Source of the DNA: Desulfonatronovibrionaceae bacterium
GTDB taxonomy: Bacteria > Desulfobacterota > Desulfovibrionia > Desulfovibrionales > Desulfonatronovibrionaceae
Reading direction: 5' to 3'
DNA: 40,447 bases
Assembly (NCBI GenBank): GCA_046539845.1
Contig: JBKHGE010000020.1
Location: 1-40,447 of the forward strand
A program made the position numbers and the translations under genes. Below, piece after piece: positions 5,032-17,120 of the stretch. The notes below the pieces were generated by a model that saw only the letters and a list, made by a program, of their open reading frames with translations, ran no database searches and had not been told where the DNA came from. Numbering within the stretch: the first letter of the stretch is position 1; each line of letters begins with the position of its first letter.

Positions 5032-6699
5032 CTAATCGATCATCCAGGTCTTGTCTTGCAGATATTTCTTTTCCATGGCTGGTCTGGATTCCTCGAATTC
5101 AATACCGTAGGTATCCAGCATGGTTCCCATGTATTTATCCAGGGAATTGACCGCCTCAATATAAGAAATAATTGCCTCACGCTCGGTTTTCTTGGCCTCG
5201 CTCAAGCGGTCCTGGGAATCCGTGAAATTATTATTAGTGATCCGCCCCAGGCGCAGCTTGAGCTCGTCCATCTCATAGTTCTTCCGGGCGATCTCCCTTG
5301 ATTTGCGGGCCAACTCGACCCGTTTCTCCATGTATCGGACATTGCGCACCATATTTAACACGTCAGTCTTGAGGTCGCTTTGGGCCTCTTTTAACTGAAT
5401 GCGGGCTTTATCTAAAGCTATACGGCTGGAAAGTACTGGCCTCTCATAATCATATTTGACCCCCCCAAAAAACTTCAAAGGGATCCTTAAAGTAAGTCCC
5501 ACATCCCAGCTTCCCTGATTATATTCCTGGTCTGGATCATTATGACTAGTGTTTGTATAACTGCTTTCAAAAGAAAGGTCCCACAATTTATCCCGCTTGG
5601 CCTGCATCAAATCCAGTTTTTTCTTTCGAACCGCGTGCCTTGCCGCGATAATGGCGGTGTTTTTCCTGCGCGCGGTCTTTAGACACCTGTCCACATCCGG
5701 CACATTGGGGCGGAATGAATACTCTTCAGTAGCCATTATCTCTTTATCACTTTTAATACCCAAGGTATTTAAAAGATCCCTTCTGGACTCGTCCAAATTG
5801 TTCACCGCCTGTTCGTAGGACAACTCTTTGCGGGCCACGTTGGCCTCGGCCTGCAAAATTTCGCCCTCCGGCTTGCGTCCATTTTCGACCAAGAGCTTAT
5901 TTATCTTCAACTGCTGCCGGGCGTCCGCCAGGGATTTCTTGTCGCTTTCAAACGCTTTTTGTGCCTTCCACAGGGAGTTGTACGCACCTATAATATTAAC
6001 AATCTCCGCACTTATGTCATCTCTAATCCGTAATACCGCTTCTTGGGACTCCATCTCGGTCTTTTTAAGAGAGGCGGTATTATAGTCTATCCCTGCCCCC
6101 TTAAGGAGTGGTTGGGTAAATTTAACAGAACCTTCTCCCTCATCAGTCCATGCATCCCCACGCGCGGTATTATCATCGCTCCAGTCATAAGCATGGCTTA
6201 GGGTATGCTTGGCAATAATTTCCCCCCCGGTGGGAAGCTCCTGGACCACCTGGGGCGTGGCCGAGGCCGAGCGGGATTCAGTATGCTCATGCGTTGCATC
6301 CTGTTCTTTATAATCCGTATCAGTTCTGGAGGTTTTAATATCCAGTTCCCCCTCGACTGTTATATTCGGATAAAATTTGCGCCGCCTCTCGGCCAGGTCA
6401 AATTTCTCCAGCACCCGGTCCATATAAGTAGTCTTTATCTGCCGGCTGTAGCGCAGACCTATGGAGATGGCCTCCACCAAATTCATTTCCAGGGTGTTGT
6501 TACCGGAATTATCATACTCCCCAGCCCCCTCCTCAGCAAAAGCAGTAGTTTCCGCGGCTAGCGGGGCACACAGGAAAAAAACTGTTAAGAACAAGCCAAA
6601 CAGTTGCCACCCTGTTTTGGAAAATAGTCCAATATTTAATCCGGAAAAAGACATAAGACAATTTACCGAGTGCCAGCGATGAATCAGGCTAATCTTCAA
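5032..6699 (-). CDS. TolC-family outer membrane efflux protein
   Basis: Signal-peptide-like segment (..LCAPLAA), MNLVEAISIGL, FTQPLLKGAG, two repeats of helical barrel plus beta strands. First gene of the TolC-MFP-ABC-permease operon. The true start is uncertain and may be ATG 6654. Confidence 0.85.
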   Translation of the reverse strand: MKISLIHRWHSVNCLMSFSGLNIGLFSKTGWQLFGLFLTVFFLCAPLAAETTAFAEEGAGEYDNSGNNTLEMNLVEAISIGLRYSRQIKTTYMDRVLEKFDLAERRRKFYPNITVEGELDIKTSRTDTDYKEQDATHEHTESRSASATPQVVQELPTGGEIIAKHTLSHAYDWSDDNTARGDAWTDEGEGSVKFTQPLLKGAGIDYNTASLKKTEMESQEAVLRIRDDISAEIVNIIGAYNSLWKAQKAFESDKKSLADARQQLKINKLLVENGRKPEGEILQAEANVARKELSYEQAVNNLDESRRDLLNTLGIKSDKEIMATEEYSFRPNVPDVDRCLKTARRKNTAIIAARHAVRKKKLDLMQAKRDKLWDLSFESSYTNTSHNDPDQEYNQGSWDVGLTLRIPLKFFGGVKYDYERPVLSSRIALDKARIQLKEAQSDLKTDVLNMVRNVRYMEKRVELARKSREIARKNYEMDELKLRLGRITNNNFTDSQDRLSEAKKTEREAIISYIEAVNSLDKYMGTMLDTYGIEFEESRPAMEKKYLQDKTWMID

Positions 6700-6759
6700 T
6701 TTCCTCTAAGAGCGCGAATCCGACTATCCGCTTTGCAGTCACTTCAAACAACAATTTCA

Positions 6760-7194
6760 TCACTTCCTTTTTACCCCCCGCACATAATTGCCCACCGCCT
6801 CCTGCAGGGTGCCGGCGGCCAGAAAGGCGCAATGCTCGTTTTCCTCCGGCAGCCCGCCGATTTTTTCCAGGATCAGTCCTCCGGTAACCGAGGCCGCGTC
6901 TTCCGGGTCCTTTCCCTCGGCCAGTTCACAGGCCAGATCCCCGCAGACAACGCTCGGACCACAGCCATCACTGACAAAAGAGGCCTTCTTGACCCTGTTG
7001 TCCTCAACCTGCAAAAAAATCTCGATACTGTCCCCGCAGCTCCCGGTGAGTCTAGCCCGGGCGTCAGCAAGATCCATTGCCCCGAAATGGGTCGGATTCT
7101 GCCAGCGTCTGGTGGCCTCCGCCCCGAATTCCTGCTCGGTCTCCTTGACTATCCTGTCCTGCAAATCCTGCAAAAAAGCATCCATCTGTTCCAT
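6760..7194 (-). CDS. IscU/NifU-N-like Fe-S cluster scaffold protein
   Basis: NPTHFG, GSCGDSIEIFL, SDGCG and EHCAFLA supply the three conserved cysteines. GGGAG RBS. Confidence 0.88.
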   Translation of the reverse strand: MEQMDAFLQDLQDRIVKETEQEFGAEATRRWQNPTHFGAMDLADARARLTGSCGDSIEIFLQVEDNRVKKASFVSDGCGPSVVCGDLACELAEGKDPEDAASVTGGLILEKIGGLPEENEHCAFLAAGTLQEAVGNYVRGVKRK

Positions 7195-7407
7195 TATTTT
7201 CTCCCTTATATTGGCTCTTATGACTATTAAGAATTATTTCAAAGAGTTGTGCAAGACATCCCTACGAATTCAGGGATCGGGAGTAACAAGACCCACTCGA
7301 TTAGCGCGGAATATATACATTGCCGGGAAAGGTCCAATATCCGCGTACAAAAGAGGCGTCCCTTAAACAGCAGACGCCTTTGAATATCTTTATTGTCCGG
7401 AATCATC

Positions 7408-7770
7408 CTAGGCGAAGATCTCGCTCGGAGCAAACGGGTGGCCGCCCTCAACCACCTCAATCCCGGCCTTGGCCCGGATCTTTTGCACCAGGGTATCCTT
7501 GTACGGGCAGTTGTCCACTATGCACGGCGCGATATGAATTTTTGTCGGTTTTTCCTGCATGGGCGCGTTCCACAATTTCACCTGAGCCAGCCGGGTGACA
7601 ATGGCCGAACCGGGGCAGTCCCCGCAGTTCAAAAGACCCATGAGTTCGGCGTCCTCCCCGTAATCGGCGAATTTTCCCTTGCGGCGGTTAAAGCCCACCA
7701 AACAGCGGGAACAACCGATGCAGACATCATCCATGATCTTTTTGCATCCCACGATCAGGATCTTTTCCAT
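7408..7770 (-). CDS. CGGC-domain protein (putative metal-binding/redox)
   Basis: GC..x..CIGCSRC, LNCGDCPG, HIAPC...CPY, terminal GGH. GGAGG RBS. Confidence 0.85.
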   Translation of the reverse strand: MEKILIVGCKKIMDDVCIGCSRCLVGFNRRKGKFADYGEDAELMGLLNCGDCPGSAIVTRLAQVKLWNAPMQEKPTKIHIAPCIVDNCPYKDTLVQKIRAKAGIEVVEGGHPFAPSEIFA

Positions 7771-7819
7771 AAATGAACACCTCCAGGCTTTCCCCCTCCC
7801 GCTGGAGATCGGGCCGCCA

Positions 7820-9310
7820 TCAGGCCATTTTCAGCCTTTTTTCCAAATCGGATGATATTTCCGTTACAACAGTTTCCCGAACCTTGTCCACAACCACCTC
7901 TCCCTGGGGGGCTCCCTTGACCTTGCGCACATCCCGGACCTCGCAGCAGATGACTTCCGCCTGAGCATCGTTTTTGCGGTAGCTGGCCAGGGCAGCCAGG
8001 CAAGCCGCCTGGTGCATGCTCTGCTCCGGGACCTCCTGCTCGGGATGATCCCTTTTAAGGATCAAATGCGCCCCTGGACCGCCCTGGATATGGAACCACA
8101 AATCGAACGGGCTGGCCGCGCGGGACAGAAGCTCATGGTTGGCTCGGCTGTTCTTGCCCCGAAGGAGCAAAAAGCCGTCCTCGGTCTTAAACACATGCAC
8201 GGCAAGATCACGGTATCTGTTGGGAAGTCTGCTTTCCGGGGCCGCTTTTCCCTGGCCTGCGGTCGGTCTGGAACCGCTCCGGGATCCTCCGGGCTCATCA
8301 AGCATTTTTTGGACTTCCTTTCTTCTCTGAGTTACGAATGCCAGACCGCGGTTTCCCTTGCGTCCCCGTTTAAACATGCCTTGCATGTTCTCCAGCACCG
8401 TAAGGGCGGGATCGAGCTTTATCTCTATCTCCCGGCCCTGGCTGTCAGGTATACGGACGGATCCCTTCTTATCGCCCTTGTTCAGCCGATACAGGTTATC
8501 TTGAATTAACCCGGCAAGCTCACCTTCCTCTTTCATACGCAAAAGACGAAAATGTTCTTCCTCCAGCCTTTTTAGCGTCCGCCGCAGACGTTTTGTCCGT
8601 CTTTTTTGTTCCGGCTGATCCGCAACACTCCGGCCGGACCAGATTCGGGAATCTCTTGCACCCAGGCATTTCACGGCCTCAAGTGCGGAAGAGAATTCCC
8701 GTACCCATCCGGCCTCCGCTGGCCTCCAGGCATAAACGGCCTCCGGTTCTTGTCTACCTGCCGCACAAAACGCCTCGGGACGCCCGGAACTCAAAAGTGC
8801 GTAAAGGGCCTGCGCCCCCTCCTCGGAACGCACTGCCAGCTCATGGCGAAGGGGTGGAGAAAGCTGGGGGTATTCCCTCCATATATCCGGGTGGCTCAAA
8901 ACCGATTCAAATTTAGGCCAGGGAACCTCCGCCTCGAATTCAGCTCCCGGCTCTTCGGTCATAAGCAGACCCTCCCGCAGGTCCAGGATAAGGAAACCCG
9001 GTCCCGGCCCACACAGTTTAAAGGCCGCCCGCCTGTATTGCCAGGCGGAGAGAACTGTCTGGATACGCCTGGAGCCGACCTGTTTGCGCAGTTTCATCAC
9101 CCGAACCGGTGGGGAGTCCGGGTTAACAGGCTTGGATCCGGACAGAAAAAAAAGGCCCCCCTTACGGGAGGCCTTTATAATCAAGTATCCGGCCCGACCC
9201 AGGTCCAGAGTCCACAGATCCGAGGCCGGTGCGTATATTTTCTGCACACGCAGGCCCTCGACCTGCGCATGCAGTTCGCAAACCGCGAAACGGAATAAAT
9301 TGGCTTCCAT
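7820..9310 (-). CDS. NFACT/RqcH-like (fibronectin-binding/DUF814) RNA-binding protein
   Basis: N-terminal GLRVQKIY NFACT-N-like region, coiled coil with IKLDPALTVLENMQ, C-terminal RGKNSRANHELL...DLWFHIQGGPGAHLIL...AACLAALAS NFACT-R domain. Confidence 0.82.
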   Translation of the reverse strand: MEANLFRFAVCELHAQVEGLRVQKIYAPASDLWTLDLGRAGYLIIKASRKGGLFFLSGSKPVNPDSPPVRVMKLRKQVGSRRIQTVLSAWQYRRAAFKLCGPGPGFLILDLREGLLMTEEPGAEFEAEVPWPKFESVLSHPDIWREYPQLSPPLRHELAVRSEEGAQALYALLSSGRPEAFCAAGRQEPEAVYAWRPAEAGWVREFSSALEAVKCLGARDSRIWSGRSVADQPEQKRRTKRLRRTLKRLEEEHFRLLRMKEEGELAGLIQDNLYRLNKGDKKGSVRIPDSQGREIEIKLDPALTVLENMQGMFKRGRKGNRGLAFVTQRRKEVQKMLDEPGGSRSGSRPTAGQGKAAPESRLPNRYRDLAVHVFKTEDGFLLLRGKNSRANHELLSRAASPFDLWFHIQGGPGAHLILKRDHPEQEVPEQSMHQAACLAALASYRKNDAQAEVICCEVRDVRKVKGAPQGEVVVDKVRETVVTEISSDLEKRLKMA

Positions 9311-9889: not shown

Positions 9890-9964
<75 letters not shown>

Positions 9965-9969
9965 GATAA

Positions 9970-10044
<75 letters not shown>

Positions 10045-10055
10045 TTTTTTTTTCA

Positions 10056-10130
<75 letters not shown>

Positions 10131-10136
10131 GATCTC

Positions 10137-10169
10137 AAGCCCGCCCCTAAGGCGGGCTTTCTGTTTTTT
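10137..10169 (+). terminator. Rho-independent terminator of the tRNA operon
   Basis: AAGCCCGCC-CCTAA-GGCGGGCTT followed by TCTGTTTTTT. Confidence 0.85.
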
Positions 10170-10347: not shown

Positions 10348-11067
10348 ATGAATGAAAACAACCTTGAGCATTTGCTGGATAACGCCCAGAAAAAATTCAG
10401 GGTCGGTTTTGAGCCGGTAAAGATAAACAATACCGTTTTAAACATCCTGCAGATCCAGAACCTGGATGAATATCTGGAGACACTGGCGGACAAAAGCTCG
10501 GGTACTGATCCTTTAGAGCTCCCGTTTTGGGCCAAGATATGGCCGGCCTCCATTCTCCTCGCCTACTCTCTGGATCGGCTGACAGAACCCGGGGACCCGC
10601 ACAAGCAGACGGTTCTGGAACTTGGGGCAGGCACCGGCCTTTGCGGGCTCTATACGGCCGCTCTGGGCTTTGCAACCACAATCACAGACAACAACAAAGA
10701 CGCCCTGCTCTTTGCCCGTATCAACGCACTTAAAAACGACCTAGCCTCCAGGGTTAAGGTGGACTATGCGGATATGGGAAAGACAGTCCTTGATACCGGG
10801 TTTGATTATATCCTCGGCTCGGAGATCTTGTATATCCAGGATCTGAACCGGGCACTGGTCAAATTTATCTCCAGGCACCTGAATCCGGGCGGACGGGTTA
10901 TCCTGAGCGCGGACTACAAGCGGCAGTCCAAAAAATTCTTCAATCTGGCGGCCGAGGAATTCGATATCAGCCACAAGACAATCGGATATAAAGAAAAAAA
11001 CTCCCAGGGAAAGCAGGAAAGATTCTTATGCAGCATATACACCCTGACGCGCAAAAGAGATGATTAG
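10348..11067 (+). CDS. Class I SAM-dependent methyltransferase (Methyltransf_16 / protein-lysine MTase-like)
   Basis: LPFWAKIWPASILLA, motif I VLELGAGTGLCG, TITD, DYILGSEILY. Start placed at ATG 10348; the ORF track extends to TTG 10234. Overlaps the YcaO start by 8 nt. Confidence 0.85.
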   Translation: MNENNLEHLLDNAQKKFRVGFEPVKINNTVLNILQIQNLDEYLETLADKSSGTDPLELPFWAKIWPASILLAYSLDRLTEPGDPHKQTVLELGAGTGLCGLYTAALGFATTITDNNKDALLFARINALKNDLASRVKVDYADMGKTVLDTGFDYILGSEILYIQDLNRALVKFISRHLNPGGRVILSADYKRQSKKFFNLAAEEFDISHKTIGYKEKNSQGKQERFLCSIYTLTRKRDD

Positions 11068-12772
11068 GATATACCCCTCGCCAAAAGCATACACCCTGGA
11101 TCAGGACAAGGCCCGGGACCCGGAGAAAACCGGAGAATGGGCCAAAGAAGCCCTGATAAGCGGCGGCCGGGTCCTGGAGGATCTGATCCGCGTGGACTCC
11201 GGTCGCTTGGGAATCCCGGTATATATGAGCGTGTGCACCCGGGAGGCGGGCAAAATCCTGCCCGCGAGCAAGCAGATGGGCAAAGGGGCCTCCCCGGAGC
11301 AGGCCCGGGCCTCGGCCTTGATGGAGCTTGCGGAACGCTACAGCTTCTTTTGTTTCTGGGAACAGGGCGGCCGGACCATGACCTGGACGGAAGCGGAAAA
11401 TGAATTCGGCCGGTGTTTGATGCCCCTCCGGCTGATCGCCGCGTCCGTGGGCAACGACCTGCCCGAAGAAGAAATCCGCAGGATAATGGATCTGGTCCCC
11501 TGGCGTTTTGCTCCGTGCACGAATCTGTATTCGGAAGCTGAATACCACGCGCCTGTGGATTGGTTCCGCATGCTCAACGAGTTCAACGGCAGCTCGGCCG
11601 GGAATACGGCCATGGAATCCATATTCCAGGGGGCGTGTGAGCTGGTGGAAAGACATGTATGCGCCCGGATATCCGCAAATGACTTGGTCACGCCGGGCAT
11701 TGATCCGTCCAGCTTCAATCCCGGTCCCCTTCAGGAACTGTTTTTTAAATTCACTGCCAAAGGGATCAAGGTGATCCTCAAGGATTTTTCTCTGGATATG
11801 CCGGTACCCACGGTAGGCGCGGCTGCCTATGACCCGAAGACTTTTCCGGACAAGAGCGAAATCGTGTTTACCGCGGGGACAGCCGCTTCCCCGGACAAGG
11901 CGGCCATCCGGGCCCTGACCGAAGTGGCCCAGCTGGCTGGGGACTTTGAATCCGGACGACCCTACGAGCCCTCCGGGTTGCCCAAGCTGGCCGGTCTTGA
12001 GGAACTGGACTGGCTCCGAAAAGGGGGCCAAAGACCCCTTAACGCCCTACCGGACATCTCCAGTACTGATTTCGGAGAGGAACTCCGCGCTTTGATCTGC
12101 AGACTCGGAGAAAAGGGCTTTTATCTACACGTGCTGGAACTGACCTGTCCAGAACTCAATATACCTGCCCACTATAATTTTGTTCCGGGATTCGAGTTTC
12201 GCGAGCGCAGCCCCTCGGCCGGCGTAGGGATGTTTACCGCCAAGAAGATCGCTGCGGAGCTGCCTGTCGGCCGAGCCCGCCAGGCCTTGAATGAGCTGGC
12301 CCGCATCCGGCCGAGTGCTCCGTATATCCCTTTTCAAAGCGGGATGATCGCCCTGCGGGAAGGAGATACAAAGCAGGCGCAAACGGATTTTTTAAACGCG
12401 GCCGAGCTCCAGGAAAACCCTCAGGAACAAGCCCTGGCCCTGTTCTATGCCGGATACGCCCAGAGTCTGGAGGGAAACTGGCCCGGGGTACGGGAAAAAG
12501 TGACCCGGGCCCTGGATCTGGATTGTGAAGTCAAAGAGTACCACAATCTCCTGGGGGTGGCCCTGTTCAAAGAAAAAAAGTTCTCCCGGGCGGCCGTACA
12601 TTTCCAAAAGGCGCTCGAGCTGGACAGTGCTTCGGCTGTGGACATGGCCAACCTGGGCCTGTGCCACAAAAACATGGATGCGCGGGAGGAGGCCATATCC
12701 TGCCTCTCCAGCGCCCTACAGATAGATCCCGGCCTGGAGTTTGCGCACAAAGAACTCCTCGAACTTCTTTAG
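11060..12772 (+). CDS. YcaO-family protein with C-terminal TPR repeats
   Basis: GRLGIPVY, KQMGKG...ARASALMELAERYS, NGSSAGNT..ESIFQGACELVERH, AIRALTEVAQ (YcaO ATP/Mg-binding motifs). Last ~170 aa are TPR-like (ALFYAGYAQ, YHNLLGVALF, ANLGLCH). Confidence 0.88.
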   Translation: MIRIYPSPKAYTLDQDKARDPEKTGEWAKEALISGGRVLEDLIRVDSGRLGIPVYMSVCTREAGKILPASKQMGKGASPEQARASALMELAERYSFFCFWEQGGRTMTWTEAENEFGRCLMPLRLIAASVGNDLPEEEIRRIMDLVPWRFAPCTNLYSEAEYHAPVDWFRMLNEFNGSSAGNTAMESIFQGACELVERHVCARISANDLVTPGIDPSSFNPGPLQELFFKFTAKGIKVILKDFSLDMPVPTVGAAAYDPKTFPDKSEIVFTAGTAASPDKAAIRALTEVAQLAGDFESGRPYEPSGLPKLAGLEELDWLRKGGQRPLNALPDISSTDFGEELRALICRLGEKGFYLHVLELTCPELNIPAHYNFVPGFEFRERSPSAGVGMFTAKKIAAELPVGRARQALNELARIRPSAPYIPFQSGMIALREGDTKQAQTDFLNAAELQENPQEQALALFYAGYAQSLEGNWPGVREKVTRALDLDCEVKEYHNLLGVALFKEKKFSRAAVHFQKALELDSASAVDMANLGLCHKNMDAREEAISCLSSALQIDPGLEFAHKELLELL

Positions 12773-12801
12773 GCCGAGTCTCAGTTTTTGGCTAAAAGGG
12801 A

Positions 12802-12830
12802 TTGACAAAGGGGCTATTCGGTATTTAACT
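12802..12830 (+). promoter_or_regulatory. Putative sigma70 promoter of dsrC
   Basis: TTGACA at 12802-12807 and a weak -10 (TTAACT, 12825-12830) at 17 nt spacing. Confidence 0.5.
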
Positions 12831-12974
12831 GAGAGTAATATTTGCTTGAGACGAAATTCACTTGTTTGGAAAGATTCAAACCGGAAAATGAACTCAAGCA
12901 GCGTGGCGACTTAAATGCATAAGGTGTAGGTTCTGTTTAATTCCTTACAAACTATTTTTAAGGAGGTAGTTAAT

Positions 12975-13292
12975 ATGGCCACAGTGGAATTCAAGGGGAA
13001 ACAGTTTGAAGTAGACGAAGACGGTTTCCTTCAGAAGTTTGAGCAGTGGAGCCCGGAATGGGTGGAATATGTAAAGGATCAGGAAGGAATCCCGGAGATC
13101 ACTGAAGAACATCAGAAAGTGATCGATTTTCTGCAGGACTACTATCAGAAAAACGGAATCGCCCCGATGGTCCGTATCCTGTCCAAGGTAACCGGCTTCA
13201 AGCTGAAGCACATCTACGAGCTGTTCCCGTCCGGCCCGGGCAAGGGAGCCTGTAAGATGGCCGGACTGCCCAAGCCCACCGGGTGCGTGTAG
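12975..13292 (+). CDS. dsrC: DsrC, dissimilatory sulfite reductase sulfur-carrier protein (TusE/DsrC family)
   Basis: VDEDGFL and the C-terminal arm ELFPSGPGKGACKMAGLPKPTGCV with both CysB and CysA. Strong AGGAGG RBS. Confidence 0.97.
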   Translation: MATVEFKGKQFEVDEDGFLQKFEQWSPEWVEYVKDQEGIPEITEEHQKVIDFLQDYYQKNGIAPMVRILSKVTGFKLKHIYELFPSGPGKGACKMAGLPKPTGCV

Positions 13293-13320
13293 AACCAGCT
13301 GCGGCAAATACGGAAATCCA

Positions 13321-13356
13321 AAGCGGGTCTGCTTACAAACAGGCCCGCTTTTTTTT
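13321..13356 (+). terminator. Rho-independent terminator of dsrC
   Basis: AAGCGGGTCTG-CTTACAAA-CAGGCCCGCTT followed by a T run. Confidence 0.8.
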
Positions 13357-13431: not shown

Positions 13432-16023
13432 TCAATCCCTGTTCAGATATTTGTCCCTATCGCGCTCAAAGCGAAGTGTGGTCAGGACCGCGGCAATGCC
13501 CAAAGAGACAATGCTTATAATCAAAAGCCCCAGTTTCTGGGCCTCCCATCTCTGGGCAAAAAGGGAATGGGCCCAGCTTTGTCCGCTTTTCATGCCCAGG
13601 AACACGGCCAGGGGGAATACAACCACCCCGAATATCAAGGCCAGAGTTTCGATGACTAGGAAACGCTTGAGCAGGAAGAACGAGAACAGAAAAATATCCC
13701 GGAACTTGCTGACCACAACCAAGTTGCGGCGCAGCTCGTCCAGGATTTCCTCTGCCTCCTGGATATAAATATATCCCTGCCTGAATCCGTCCGGAGATTC
13801 CAGGCTCAGATCCCCGAAATTGTTCAGCCTGAGCGCGCAATCGTTGAACAGCCGGTTGGTGCGGCGGAGAAAGAAATGTTGAAAAGGGAACCAGGAATAC
13901 TCCCTTTCCACCCTGTGCAGCTCCTTGAGCATCCAGTCCCGCTTCTTCTTTAGTTCGAATATGCCCTGATCTATCCGTTTGTTGATGTCCTTTTGCAGCT
14001 GAATAGTTTCCAAAGACAGCCGCCTGACCGCGGTGTAATTGTCCCATTGTTTGAGTTCCGCGGTTTTCTTCAGCCGGCGGAGGAACTCCTCCCGGGCAGG
14101 ATGATTGGCGTCAAACCATTTCTCGACCCTGCCCTTGAGTTCATCCAGGCTTTTGGCGGCCTGGGTAGCCCTTTTCCTGGCCTGATCCCAGACATCGTAA
14201 AATCCGGACAAGAGGTGCAGGTGCCCGCGTCCCAACTCCGGATCAATGAGGGCCTTTAAAAACACCTCCGGGCTGTTTTCCATTATGGCTGTAAGCACTC
14301 CCAGGGCCTGATCCGGGAAACCCAGTTTGACCAAGCATACCCCCTGCCTGTATCTGGCCTCAACCATGTCCGGGGAAATCTTCAGGGCCTCAGCATAGGT
14401 CTGCAGGGCGTTTTCAATGTCCTCGTCCACCTCATACATCCGGCCTCGCAAATAGACATGGTACCCCCGCTGCAGGGGAGTATAGGACAGGCTTTCCGCT
14501 TCCACCCAATAGTTCAGGGCCTCCTTGCTGCGGCCCTCCTCCATGGCCAAAAAGCCCTGCAGGGTGCGGGGCTGATAATTCTTCCCGGACCGGAGCACAG
14601 CCTCTTTCAATCTTTTGGCCGCAAACCCGTGCTCGCCCATACGCAGGTTCTCCAGGGCAGTCCGCAGGGCCGGATCTTCATTCTCTGCCACGCTGCGCAG
14701 ACCTTCCGGCCACCTTTGTCCCCGGCTGCGGAGGATTTGACGCAGCATACGCAGCTGAGAAAGGCAATTTAGTTCCAGAATTCCCTGAGTCAGACGGCCG
14801 CTGTTCTCCCCCGACCCCTGAAGATCTCCGATGCCTTTGCCTGCGGCCAGATCCTGACCGATCTGTTCCAGGCCAGCGGCTATTTGGTCCAGATTCATCT
14901 GCTCCAAAGAAGACCACACCTCGGGCTGGGGGGACATCAGACTGCGCGTCGGGCACTTGGCCGGTGGATGTTCCTTCAAGCCGCAATAAAAGCAATGCCC
15001 ATATTTTCCGGAGACCAAAGCAGAGGGGAGGTATACCTCCAGGGCCCTGCGTCCGGTCTGATCTCCGGAGGCCGCATCCAGTTGGAAAAGATCGGTTATC
15101 TTTTTACCCTCCACTCCGGTCCGCGAGCTCACGGGCCGGACCCTGTCCCCGAGCTGATAGATGCTCTGCAAAGGGAGATAGAGGAAGTCCGGTTCGAGCT
15201 GCCCCCAATCCACAGAAAGGCGTCCGAGCACTGTAGGGCTCAGGGCAAAATCCTGCTTTTCCACTCCGACAAAAAGACAGGGGACCTTGTATTCGGAATC
15301 CTTCTCATTATTCAAGAGATCAATAAGATTCTGGGTCCAGCTGGAAAGCTGCTTGATATTTTCCAGATGGAATATATACTCGTATTTCTGGTTGGTAGTG
15401 TACTTGATGTTCAGCTTCTGGGCCAGTCCGGCAAAGACCTCGCGGTACTTACGCCATTTGTCGAGAAACTCCTTTTCCTTTTTTTTGCCCAGGGGATCGA
15501 TGATAAAGAGCCAACTCAAGGTGGGGGTGTAATTGACCTGCTCGTCCGGATTAAAGACAAGCCAGTTCCTCCCGGGTGCCCCGGATGAGGAATAGGGCTT
15601 TTCAAAACCAATGCCCGGCATTCCGGCGGAAACGTCCTTGAGCTTAGGATGGGCCCAGACCTGAAAGGAATCACCCGGATTGGTCTGCAGGCCGGAAAAT
15701 TCGTCACCCAGGGATAAAGAATACTTTAGAGTGGATCCGATCAATAACTTGCAGGGGAAAATAGCCACCTTTATGACTACCGGATTAATCCGCATCCATT
15801 TGGAAATCTGGGCCCAGGCGGGCAGAATATCCCGATTGGGGAAAAACCACAGGACCTGCCCCTCTTCAGAGGCTACCTCCCAGCCCCCAAAGCTGGACAG
15901 GGTCTGGGGGATGGATCCGGGAAGGGATTTGCCCCAGACTATCCAGGAGGCGTAGCCGGAGTGCAGTATATCGGTCCGCTCTATGCGGGGTATTTTTTGC
16001 AGCAGAGAAGAAATGTTCAGCAT
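13432..16023 (-). CDS. Large TPR-repeat membrane-anchored protein with CCHC zinc knuckle; function unknown
   Basis: 863 aa. CFYCGLKEHPPAKC (C-x2-C-x4-H-x4-C), TPR helices (YLRGRMYE..ALKISPD..EARYRQGVCLVKLG), coiled coils and two C-terminal hydrophobic helices. Confidence 0.75.
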   Translation of the reverse strand: MLNISSLLQKIPRIERTDILHSGYASWIVWGKSLPGSIPQTLSSFGGWEVASEEGQVLWFFPNRDILPAWAQISKWMRINPVVIKVAIFPCKLLIGSTLKYSLSLGDEFSGLQTNPGDSFQVWAHPKLKDVSAGMPGIGFEKPYSSSGAPGRNWLVFNPDEQVNYTPTLSWLFIIDPLGKKKEKEFLDKWRKYREVFAGLAQKLNIKYTTNQKYEYIFHLENIKQLSSWTQNLIDLLNNEKDSEYKVPCLFVGVEKQDFALSPTVLGRLSVDWGQLEPDFLYLPLQSIYQLGDRVRPVSSRTGVEGKKITDLFQLDAASGDQTGRRALEVYLPSALVSGKYGHCFYCGLKEHPPAKCPTRSLMSPQPEVWSSLEQMNLDQIAAGLEQIGQDLAAGKGIGDLQGSGENSGRLTQGILELNCLSQLRMLRQILRSRGQRWPEGLRSVAENEDPALRTALENLRMGEHGFAAKRLKEAVLRSGKNYQPRTLQGFLAMEEGRSKEALNYWVEAESLSYTPLQRGYHVYLRGRMYEVDEDIENALQTYAEALKISPDMVEARYRQGVCLVKLGFPDQALGVLTAIMENSPEVFLKALIDPELGRGHLHLLSGFYDVWDQARKRATQAAKSLDELKGRVEKWFDANHPAREEFLRRLKKTAELKQWDNYTAVRRLSLETIQLQKDINKRIDQGIFELKKKRDWMLKELHRVEREYSWFPFQHFFLRRTNRLFNDCALRLNNFGDLSLESPDGFRQGYIYIQEAEEILDELRRNLVVVSKFRDIFLFSFFLLKRFLVIETLALIFGVVVFPLAVFLGMKSGQSWAHSLFAQRWEAQKLGLLIISIVSLGIAAVLTTLRFERDRDKYLNRD

Positions 16024-16043
16024 AAAAACACTCAGGAGGAAAT

Positions 16044-16421
16044 ATGGATTCGCAGGCGGTTATACACGCCATGAAAGAAAATCCCGACTTTGCCGCACGC
16101 GTGGGCATGATACTAGTCCATAACGGTGTGGTTCGGCAATGGTCAAGAAAGGATAACTCAGAAGTTGTCCGCCTCGAGGTGAAAGTGGATCACTTAAGGA
16201 TTGCGGATATAGTCAGGCAGGCCGAAAGCAGGCCGGGGATATACCGCGTGGTAGCCGAAGCCCGGGAAGGGGAGTTTTTCCCCGGCGACGACCTGATGCT
16301 GGTGGTTGTGGCCGGAGACGTGCGGGAGAATGTATTCCCGGTTTTGCAGGCGACAATCGACAGAATAAAAAAAGAGGCCCTGAGCAAAAGGGAAATAACC
16401 GCCGGATCCCCGACAGATTGA
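16044..16421 (+). CDS. moaE: MoaE-family protein (molybdopterin synthase large-subunit-like)
   Basis: GMILVHNGVVR, GDDLMLVVVAGDVRENVF..IDRIK...KRE. AGGAGG RBS. Confidence 0.75.
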   Translation: MDSQAVIHAMKENPDFAARVGMILVHNGVVRQWSRKDNSEVVRLEVKVDHLRIADIVRQAESRPGIYRVVAEAREGEFFPGDDLMLVVVAGDVRENVFPVLQATIDRIKKEALSKREITAGSPTD

Positions 16422-16439
16422 TAGCCCGGTATTCTGGGC

Positions 16440-17120
16440 TCAGAAATAACCGAGTGAACGCAGGGTATCCAGTATCCCCTCCTTGGAAGCGTCCCTGCCG
16501 GAACGCTCCCCGGGCCCGGAGCCGCTCTCAGCAGTGCACGGCATACAGCCCAGAGAGCGGTATCCGCGGTCGTAAAGGGGGCAGTACTCCAGGTTCTCCT
16601 TCCAGATAAAGGTCCAGACGTCTATCTCTGTCCAGTGCAAAATTGGGTTGACCCTGGGACAAGGCAGCTTGGCGGTCTCAAAATAGGGGCGATCCCTTCG
16701 TGAGGGATGTTCATCCGCTCGGACTCCGGTTATCAGGCATTGGATGCCCAGGCGATTAACCGCTTTGTTCAGCGGGGCAACTTTTAAGTCCGTACAGCAC
16801 TTCAGCCTGTCTTCGGCTGCTGGATAGCCGGAGAGATCAAACCCTGGGCGGGCGATACAAAGCCCTATATCCCACCTGGATGCAATTTTGTCTCGGAATT
16901 CAATGACTTCCGGGAACTTGAACCCGGTATCCACGTTAAGGGCCCGGACTTTTGCCTTTTCTTTCCGCGCCTTAAGCACACCGGCCCAGAGACGCAGGGC
17001 CAAAGTGGAATCCTTGCCCCCGGTCCAAGCCACATATACCCGATCTGGATCATTATTCTCCAGGACCTGCATCAACTTTTGCCGGGACAGCTCCAGCTTG
17101 CGCTCCAAATCGGCGGACAT
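16440..17120 (-). CDS. PAPS/APS reductase-family (CysH/CysD-like) protein
   Basis: PP-loop WTGGKDS, DTGFKFPE, CCTDLKVAPL, TGVRADE, PILHWT, GYRSLGCMPCT, ERSGR. Confidence 0.85.
   Translation of the reverse strand: MSADLERKLELSRQKLMQVLENNDPDRVYVAWTGGKDSTLALRLWAGVLKARKEKAKVRALNVDTGFKFPEVIEFRDKIASRWDIGLCIARPGFDLSGYPAAEDRLKCCTDLKVAPLNKAVNRLGIQCLITGVRADEHPSRRDRPYFETAKLPCPRVNPILHWTEIDVWTFIWKENLEYCPLYDRGYRSLGCMPCTAESGSGPGERSGRDASKEGILDTLRSLGYF

Follow-up and report, generated by a model that had tools for sequence, protein, structure and literature searches.

To our knowledge, backbone thioamides are known in just two proteins, McrA and uL16. YcaO enzymes that target these two proteins are already in print, and the YcaO-TPR family that forms the subject of this report has been described there only as DVU2210 of D. 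vulgaris Hildenborough. The analysis was carried out on a 40,447-nucleotide stretch of DNA (the window) from a Desulfonatronovibrionaceae bacterium (assembly GCA_046539845.1, contig JBKHGE010000020.1, positions 1 to 40,447 of the forward strand), whose genome comprises 2.34 Mb and is 98.9% complete. In this window, genes encoding a lysine-type methyltransferase (MTase) and a YcaO protein with a C-terminal tetratricopeptide repeat (TPR) domain are followed on the + strand by dsrC, in line with the three open reading frames (ORFs) of the original prediction, which was made from this DNA alone. We propose, at a confidence that falls just short of even, that the MTase and YcaO-TPR make up a two-enzyme protein-tailoring module of sulfate/sulfite reducers, which puts methyl-lysine and a backbone thioamide on DsrC. 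Relative to the literature searched, the link to dsrC, the methyltransferase partner and the match to older reports of DsrC mass shifts are new.

DVU2210 is annotated as a 'YcaO-like, TPR domain protein', and its native target is given as unknown in the study that describes it (PMC7774982). Deletion of DVU2210, or an S195R change in its ATP motif, led to resistance to 3 mM molybdate in a sat deletion strain (PMC7774982). Moreover, DVU2210 was reported as a high-G-score gene that took parallel hits during syntrophic evolution, beside DsrC, sat and aprAB (PMC8319347). DVU2210 is like YcaO-TPR in its two-domain make-up, its near-identical ATP motif and its sulfate-reducer host; in the D. vulgaris genome, dsrC lies elsewhere, as it does in genus g16 of the order studied here. 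When the printed 20-residue motif of DVU2210, rather than its full sequence, was compared with 69+5 family sequences, near-identical variants and zero exact matches were found. Given this motif and the domain make-up only, DVU2210 is presumed to belong to the YcaO-TPR family. In the literature searched, no paper was found that treats both YcaO and DsrC, or both a thioamide and dissimilatory sulfite reductase, and none that links DVU2210 to DsrC or to a methyltransferase.

The YcaO of E. coli thioamidates Met82 of folded uL16 and recognises tertiary structure (PMC13063428; PDB 4Q84-4Q86). Its TPR domain of 150 residues serves dimerisation and possibly binding too, and the enzyme works without TfuA; its sulfur donor in vivo is given as unknown, with proteins of primary metabolism suspected (PMC13063428). 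Like YcaO-TPR, this enzyme has its YcaO domain first and a TPR-like domain at the C-terminus, and among the full-length structural matches of YcaO-TPR it ranks top. It acts on a folded protein, is independent of TfuA and is not an enzyme of peptides that are ribosomally synthesised and then modified post-translationally (RiPPs). In sequence, however, the two are only remotely related (PDB E 1.3e-4; 45 bits vs 700 for NF040716), and they differ in taxonomic range and gene neighbours. An isoelectric point (pI) of ~4.4 is stressed for E. coli YcaO (PMC13063428), whereas that of YcaO-TPR is 5.2.

The methanogen YcaO enzymes that form the thioglycine of McrA are related to YcaO-TPR through a TIGR03266 match across the whole YcaO domain, with MJ1094 as the nearest solved sequence. 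The two systems have a theme in common, namely a thioamide together with methylations on a key enzyme of anaerobic energy metabolism, and direct use of sulfide is conceivable in both. They differ in that the family score of YcaO-TPR falls below the cut-off (105 vs 365 bits) and that only YcaO-TPR carries a TPR domain. Methanogen YcaOs pair with or without TfuA, whereas here there was no TfuA match and no methyl-coenzyme M reductase (MCR) in the genome context. The methylation enzymes also differ, being a seven-beta-strand lysine-type MTase here and a radical SAM enzyme for MCR.

YcaO-TPR combines an intact YcaO domain with a C-terminal TPR domain

The YcaO-TPR translation matched PF02624 (E 3.6e-60, 204.4 bits vs a cut-off of 25.7) and TIGR00702 (92.3 bits vs a cut-off of 75.65). 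TPR_1, TPR_2 and TPR_8 were matched in residues ~400-570, and the C-terminal TPRs that had been read from the translation were thus recovered by family profiles. The ATP motif S-x6-E-x3-Q-x3-E-xx-ER was complete, as judged by the form S-x6-7-E-x3-Q-x3-E-xx-ER quoted for the ATP/Mg motif in PMC7774982. Five of its residues (E186, Q190, E194, E197 and R198) were invariant across 69 YcaO-TPR orthologues, in agreement with the earlier statement that the ATP-binding motifs are intact.

Among curated families, the best match of YcaO-TPR was TIGR03266, the family of McrA-glycine thioamidation (E 4.7e-30, 104.8 bits, below the cut-off of 365). The scores for NF040716, the E. coli-type uL16 thioamidase (45.5 bits vs 700), and for the SagD-type TIGR03604 (76.2 bits vs 219) also lay below their cut-offs. 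An AlphaFold2 model of YcaO-TPR built with 69 sequences (pLDDT 94.8, pTM 0.90) found E. coli YcaO 4Q86 as its top full-length PDB match, with the TPR part included (627 columns, E 8.7e-16, TMq 0.49). When the YcaO domain was taken alone, it superposed best on the McrA enzymes of M. jannaschii and M. kandleri (6PE3, 6CIB; TMt 0.71-0.74). YcaO-TPR is thus like E. coli YcaO in architecture and like the methanogen enzymes in sequence, and is a member of neither curated family. The computed pI of YcaO-TPR was 5.18 (median of 69 orthologues, 5.24) and that of DsrC 5.5; an argument from pI, as made for E. coli YcaO, gave no lead at these values. A carboxylate clamp formed by the TPR residues N496 and N531 was also considered and was dropped, since both are ordinary consensus Asn residues of TPR repeats.

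Within the order of the source genome, a YcaO-TPR orthologue was present in 59 of 61 genomes, mostly in single copy and at 47-69% identity over the full length. ESM Atlas clusters of the family are titled 'YcaO-like family protein' or 'TPR domain protein', and their phylum, where given, is Thermodesulfobacteriota, plus one Myxococcota cluster. The source genome also holds a second YcaO (locus L003, 1177-2856, - strand) of 559 aa with 23% identity to YcaO-TPR. It has a 230-residue N-terminal part without assignment, sits between a gene for an FAD-linked oxidase and secA, and is resembled by frames of ~553 aa in two other genomes (G232 and G344).

Since RiPPs are the setting in which the YcaO superfamily is best known, a dispersed RiPP system with its precursor and partner genes elsewhere has to be weighed. 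An efflux set (MacB/ABC/HlyD/OEP) is encoded on the opposite strand, 3.6-9 kb upstream, and the MTase has a weak match to a daptide-type RiPP MTase (46 bits vs a cut-off of 175). However, family profile matches revealed no E1-like partner, RiPP recognition element (RRE) partner or dehydrogenase among the genes adjoining the trio, TfuA (PF07812) had zero matches in the whole 98.9%-complete genome, and no convincing small precursor ORF was found in the two intergenic gaps. No protease adjoins the trio either, and the efflux set just mentioned is not adjacent, so that the list of absent neighbours given in the original prediction was reproduced. The orthologues, at the identities and copy number given above, are unlike fast-diverging RiPP enzymes, and TIGR03604 scored only 76 bits. 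A RiPP system of this kind is very improbable, and the view that the locus is not a RiPP cluster was upheld by the lack of precursor, partner and TfuA as well as by the slow evolution and mostly single copy of YcaO-TPR.

The methyltransferase resembles METTL21 enzymes and accompanies YcaO-TPR

The MTase matched PF10294, Methyltransf_16 or 'lysine methyltransferase', well above its cut-off (E 9.7e-17, 61.7 bits vs 21). The start of its gene is placed at ATG 10348, not TTG 10234, because 35 orthologues align from residues 1-15. Human METTL21A-D were the nearest solved structures, the closest being METTL21A (4LEC, E 1.5e-9). The protein has a GxGxG motif for binding of S-adenosylmethionine and an invariant Glu in GSE(I/V)LY; across 36 orthologues W61, W65, E91, G93, G95, G97, D114 and E159 were invariant. 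A (D/E)xx(Y/F) motif is typical of the METTL21/Methyltransf_16 family. Indirect evidence for lysine methylation comes from the trimethyl-lysines reported on D. vulgaris DsrC, AprA and AprB (PMC3125180). The MTase differs from METTL21 in being bacterial and almost confined to YcaO-TPR genomes.

Within the order, an MTase orthologue was detected in 51 genomes, each time directly upstream of the YcaO gene, and the two genes stay adjacent in genus g16, where dsrC is elsewhere; in four genera of the order no MTase orthologue was found. As previously read from the sequence, the two genes overlap by 8 nt, which the letters at the junction confirm (ATGATTAG) and which is consistent with translational coupling. 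Outside the order, an MTase beside YcaO was seen in 0 of 39 loci. Unlinked MTase orthologues do exist there, and 18 of the 18 tested were reciprocal best hits. In the phylum sample (301 genomes), MTase matches at E <= 1e-18 occurred in 67 genomes, 63 of which are YcaO-TPR genomes; the four exceptions comprise two incomplete genomes and two borderline matches. In G063, the only genome of its order in the sample, an MTase orthologue stands alone directly behind dsrC, with the YcaO gene on another contig. The idea that the MTase and YcaO form one unit therefore holds as adjacency within the order and fails as adjacency outside it: the adjacent pair is special to this order, yet both enzymes co-occur across genomes.

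YcaO-TPR is confined to genomes with DsrC and recurs beside dsrC

DsrC was found in 165 genomes of the phylum sample and YcaO-TPR in 102. All 102 YcaO-TPR genomes had DsrC (102/102), and none of the 136 DsrC-less genomes had YcaO-TPR (0/136); related genomes are not independent, so these counts overstate the statistics. With the MTase mostly (63/67) within YcaO-TPR genomes and YcaO-TPR within DsrC genomes, the distributions are therefore nested. Within the order, dsrC lies downstream of YcaO, within 1 kb and on the same strand, in 48 of the 59 genomes with YcaO; in 10 genomes (three genera) dsrC is not beside YcaO, and in the remaining one a contig end interrupts the locus. In the phylum sample, 19 of 102 genomes have YcaO-TPR and dsrC on one strand and <=1 kb apart; dsrC stands downstream in 11 of these and upstream in the other 8, which all belong to one family, and in 8 more genomes the distance is 1-25 kb. 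At least 5 changes of adjacency state are required on the YcaO tree, where two separate, well-supported clades show the downstream order. Moreover, other YcaO types also adjoin dsrC: a 484-aa paralogue without TPRs, scoring 173 bits against the McrA-type model, stands behind dsrC in 3 genomes of another family, and a third type of 439 aa lies inside a dsrAB/dsrN-like/dsrC cluster in one genome. Overall, dsrC is by far the commonest neighbour of YcaO-TPR, any other gene recurring in at most 5 of 41 loci.

Inherited synteny alone would hardly account for arrangements this varied. The original prediction had warned that the adjacency to dsrC might be incidental and had pointed to synteny and phylogenetic profiling. 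The warning was not sustained, because the adjacency is seen again under different gene orders and with YcaOs of other types, and profiling revealed a family confined to DsrC-bearing genomes and repeatedly placed beside dsrC.

Two of these other arrangements deserve description in their own right. In L097 (G197:C53, 635-9998), dsrAB is divergent from a dsrN-like amidase gene, dsrC, a 132-aa ORF and the TPR-less 439-aa YcaO; beyond the YcaO follow a CN-hydrolase and a 573-aa B12-binding radical SAM protein with TPRs, which is reminiscent of the radical SAM methylase acting on McrA. In L071 (G253, 5812-8660) and L072 (G162, 14245-17057), the order GNAT acetyltransferase, dsrC, helix-hairpin-helix protein, 484-aa YcaO paralogue is conserved, and both genomes also hold YcaO-TPR 8-45 kb off, followed by a NIL-4Fe4S ferredoxin.

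If the adjacency reflected inherited synteny without shared function, YcaO-TPR might carry out other ATP chemistry, for example on molybdate or another small molecule. Within the order, the whole block DksA-tRNAs-MTase-YcaO-dsrC-MoaE is kept even though not all of its members can be related functionally; adjacency is absent in most genomes outside the order, and adenylation of molybdate was proposed by the authors who studied DVU2210 (PMC7774982). On the other hand, two gene orders, two separate clades and two further YcaO types all show the adjacency, the genes are distributed in a strictly nested way, and we estimate the chance of two named genes being neighbours at ~1 in 1000 per lineage. 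It is also established that all characterised YcaOs act on backbone amides of peptides or proteins (PMC13063428). A purely positional link of this kind is improbable.

The pair might instead modify another folded protein, with dsrC merely a co-regulated or co-inherited neighbour; DsrA/B, AprA/B, Sat or a protein of the ribosome or of translation, for instance uL16, would then be the target. E. coli YcaO, which has the same overall architecture, acts on uL16, and outside the order 4 of 18 loci have the MTase orthologue directly behind rpoC, while an EF-G paralogue lies just upstream of YcaO-TPR in 4 loci. In one family dsrAB is ~4 kb from YcaO-TPR, D. vulgaris AprA and AprB carry trimethyl-lysine, and a separate promoter for dsrC, as described below, would fit as well. 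Nevertheless, a universal target like uL16 would leave the confinement to DsrC genomes unexplained, YcaO-TPR reaches a mere 45 of the 700 bits of NF040716, its pI is ~5.2 and not the 4.4 of uL16-type enzymes, and dsrC is recorded beside YcaO-TPR far more often than any other gene. We regard another target as unlikely, on balance, while ranking it as the leading competitor of the proposal that DsrC is the substrate.

A different role for DsrC, also raised in the original prediction, would be that of sulfur donor: as a carrier of the TusE family, DsrC might pass sulfur from a persulfide or trisulfide to a YcaO-activated amide of another protein, in place of TfuA/ThiS. The genome has no TfuA match, and TfuA-less E. 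coli YcaO has a donor in vivo for which proteins of primary metabolism are suspected (PMC13063428). Further neighbours of YcaO-TPR handle sulfur. A NIL-4Fe4S ferredoxin adjoins YcaO-TPR in 5 loci, in one of them along with HcyBio, a sulfur-inserting homocysteine enzyme (L045, in the order HcyBio, NIL-ferredoxin, YcaO-TPR). A JAB/desampylase-like gene directly follows YcaO-TPR in 2 loci (L036 and L039, family f55), and MoaE does so in 4. However, this MoaE is the only one of its genome and so a housekeeping gene; sulfate reducers have ample sulfide, and the YcaOs of methanogens function with no carrier (PMC13063428). The donor role would also leave unexplained both the MTase behind dsrC in G063 and the modified DsrC peptides described below. 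We consider it quite improbable that DsrC serves as donor.

DsrC and its reported mass shifts

The dsrC product matched PF04358 (E 1.4e-37) and TIGR03342 (122.9 bits vs a cut-off of 53.5) and is the sole DsrC match in the genome, with dsrAB on another contig. C93 and C104 were invariant in 37 sequences, and K78 was nearly so. When 56 DsrCs from YcaO-TPR genomes were compared with 14 from genomes without YcaO-TPR, ten positions separated the groups fully. In the arm (residues 80-105), which the groups otherwise share, only G89 (Ala in all 14) and M95 (Leu/Val in the 14) differed between the groups. G89 lies within a peptide that was reported with +16 Da, and the thioamides of McrA and uL16 are formed at Gly and Met, respectively.

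DsrC of D. vulgaris has been reported with mass shifts in a 2011 proteomics study (PMC3125180, Table 1). The peptide ...DHQK*IIDFLQDYYK was assigned trimethylation or acetylation, and the peptide LK*EVYELFPSGPGK was assigned 'Trimethylation+Oxidation' in three pull-downs (PMC3125180). The latter peptide contains no Met, Cys or Trp. At the mass tolerance of 0.2 Da stated in PMC3125180, an exchange of O for S (+15.977) is inseparable from oxidation (+15.995). DsrC of genus g16 carries exactly this peptide, and its N-terminus is almost identical to that of the D. vulgaris DsrC given in the supplement of PMC3125180.

Fusion partners of DsrC were surveyed among 44 DsrC-domain proteins of 185-2000 aa, where TrmD, DsrH, DsrN-like and other domains were found. 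Six metagenome proteins of 356-389 aa were called as fusions of the DsrC domain with TrmD, a tRNA m1G37 methyltransferase; these may be real or may result from read-through in gene calling.

Proposed modification of DsrC

Gene content, motifs, fold, distribution and synteny, as described above, are what was observed; the substrate, the site and the chemistry we infer from them. In its detailed form, which we put forward tentatively and with clearly less than even confidence, the proposal states that DsrC bears a backbone thioamide introduced by YcaO-TPR, likeliest as thioglycine at Gly89 or Gly87, together with trimethyl-lysines introduced by the METTL21-like enzyme. With ATP, the YcaO domain would phosphorylate one backbone amide oxygen on folded DsrC, near the base of the C-terminal arm, with Gly89 and Gly87 in L77-K90 as candidates. 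Sulfide, which is abundant in the cells of sulfate reducers, would then displace the phosphate to give the thioamide, and no TfuA would be required. By the model of E. coli YcaO, the TPR domain would serve dimerisation and/or docking. The METTL21-like MTase would methylate conserved DsrC lysines, with K78 and K48 as candidates, and may act on AprA and AprB too. The modifications would tune the DsrC arm, the carrier of the trisulfide between DsrAB and DsrMK, and they would be non-essential. A thioamide would show as +15.977 Da, and not +15.995, on the DsrC peptide LKEVYELFPSGPGK or on the CKMAG peptide.

Several observations weigh against this proposal. We know of no thioamide reported in crystal structures of DsrABC. 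YcaO-TPR and dsrC lie on different contigs in 66 of 102 genomes and >25 kb apart in 9, and no fusion of DsrC to YcaO or Methyltransf_16 was found among the 44 proteins surveyed above. The contrast at G89 and M95 is a single evolutionary event, because the 14 sequences form one side of one branch of the DsrC tree, and by itself proves nothing. Three genomes with a DsrC of the G89/M95 type are without any YcaO, and among them G170 is closed in a single contig; two further such genomes hold only a different, unrelated YcaO. The +16 Da on DsrC could be true oxidation, and the DsrC peptide calls come from low-resolution mass spectrometry with a ProtScore of 1.5-1.7 (PMC3125180). Trimethyl-lysines were also recorded on AprA and AprB in D. 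vulgaris (PMC3125180), and the DVU2210 single deletion grows on sulfate like the wild type (PMC7774982). Moreover, that D. vulgaris carries both YcaO-TPR and the MTase is likely and no firmer: it follows, by analogy, from the likeness of its DsrC to that of the Desulfovibrio-like genus g16, in which the MTase-YcaO pair is present.

The transcription of dsrC is a further point of this kind. In the gap of 202 nt between the YcaO stop and dsrC, which had been put at ~200 nt before, there are a ATTGACAA box, a conserved block downstream of it and a strong ribosome-binding site, AAGGAGGT. In an alignment with six relatives from the genus and the family, all three were invariant in every one (6/6), and dsrC therefore very probably has its own promoter, as had been cautioned from the single sequence. 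A simple consensus promoter scan called no promoter in this gap, and a terminator scan gave no terminator-like site between the YcaO gene and dsrC; read-through of the transcript from the MTase-YcaO pair into dsrC is possible.

Features of the locus and neighbouring genes

As shown in Table 1, the unit extends from a terminator-like hairpin behind a tRNA cluster to a second hairpin behind dsrC.

Table 1. Positions of genes, gene parts and signals at the MTase-YcaO-dsrC locus, numbered from the first letter of the window.
Feature	Position	Strand	Remarks
Terminator-like hairpin	10137-10159	+	3' of tRNA-Gly/Cys/Gly cluster (9890-10130); upstream limit of unit
Methyltransf_16/METTL21-like MTase, seven-beta-strand, 239 aa	10348-11067	+	PF10294
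YcaO-TPR gene, 570 aa	11060-12772	+	PF02624 and TPR matches
8-nt MTase/YcaO overlap ATGATTAG	11060-11067	+	YcaO ATG 11060; MTase TAG 11065-11067
YcaO ATP-dependent amide-activating domain (predicted), residues ~1-388	11060-12223	+	PF02624, intact ATP/Mg motif
TPR domain, C-terminal, residues ~389-570, ten helices	12224-12772	+	TPR_1/2/8 and model helices H389-H569
Conserved -35-like box ATTGACAA of probable dsrC promoter	12801-12808	+	Invariant in 6/6 aligned relatives
dsrC, single copy, 105 aa, Cys93 and Cys104	12975-13292	+	PF04358, TIGR03342; proposed substrate
DsrC L77-K90 codons (LKHIYELFPSGPGK), including K78 and G89	13203-13244	+	Match to D. vulgaris peptide LK*EVYELFPSGPGK
Terminator-like hairpin 3' of dsrC	13320-13351	+	Sole such + strand site downstream of MTase start

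Upstream, the locus is bordered by DksA (- strand) and the tRNA Gly-Cys-Gly cluster with its terminator. Farther upstream of dksA, at 6760-9310 (- strand), genes for a NifU-like scaffold, a CGGC-domain protein and an NFACT/RqcH-like protein stand in a row; the NFACT-dksA pair was also seen beside YcaO in locus L098. Downstream, dsrC is followed by a gene for an 863-aa TPR/membrane protein (- strand), MoaE and a PAPS-reductase-like gene. The 863-aa protein (13432-16023), which lies between dsrC and moaE, has TPRs, a CxxC...C zinc-knuckle-like stretch and hydrophobic C-terminal segments; it shows 65-85% identity within the genus, and weaker copies (33-38%) occupy the same position in four other loci of the order.

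In much of the order MoaE (16044-16421, + strand) comes after dsrC, and in three other families the distance between MTase orthologues and MoaE is 2.5-3 kb. This link to molybdenum-cofactor genes stands beside the molybdate phenotype of DVU2210. At the start of the window, positions 1-1000 are AT-rich (GC 0.42 vs ~0.54 elsewhere), and a gene for a DUF5655 protein lies at 221-1153.

Implications

If the proposal is correct, DsrC would be the third natural protein with a backbone thioamide, after McrA and uL16, and sulfate reducers would own a modification set resembling that of methyl-coenzyme M reductase. The DsrC mass shifts reported in 2011 would be explained, and DVU2210, with its effect on molybdate sensitivity and its repeated mutation in syntrophic evolution, would gain a native function. 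A central step of a globally important sulfur metabolism would thereby be affected.

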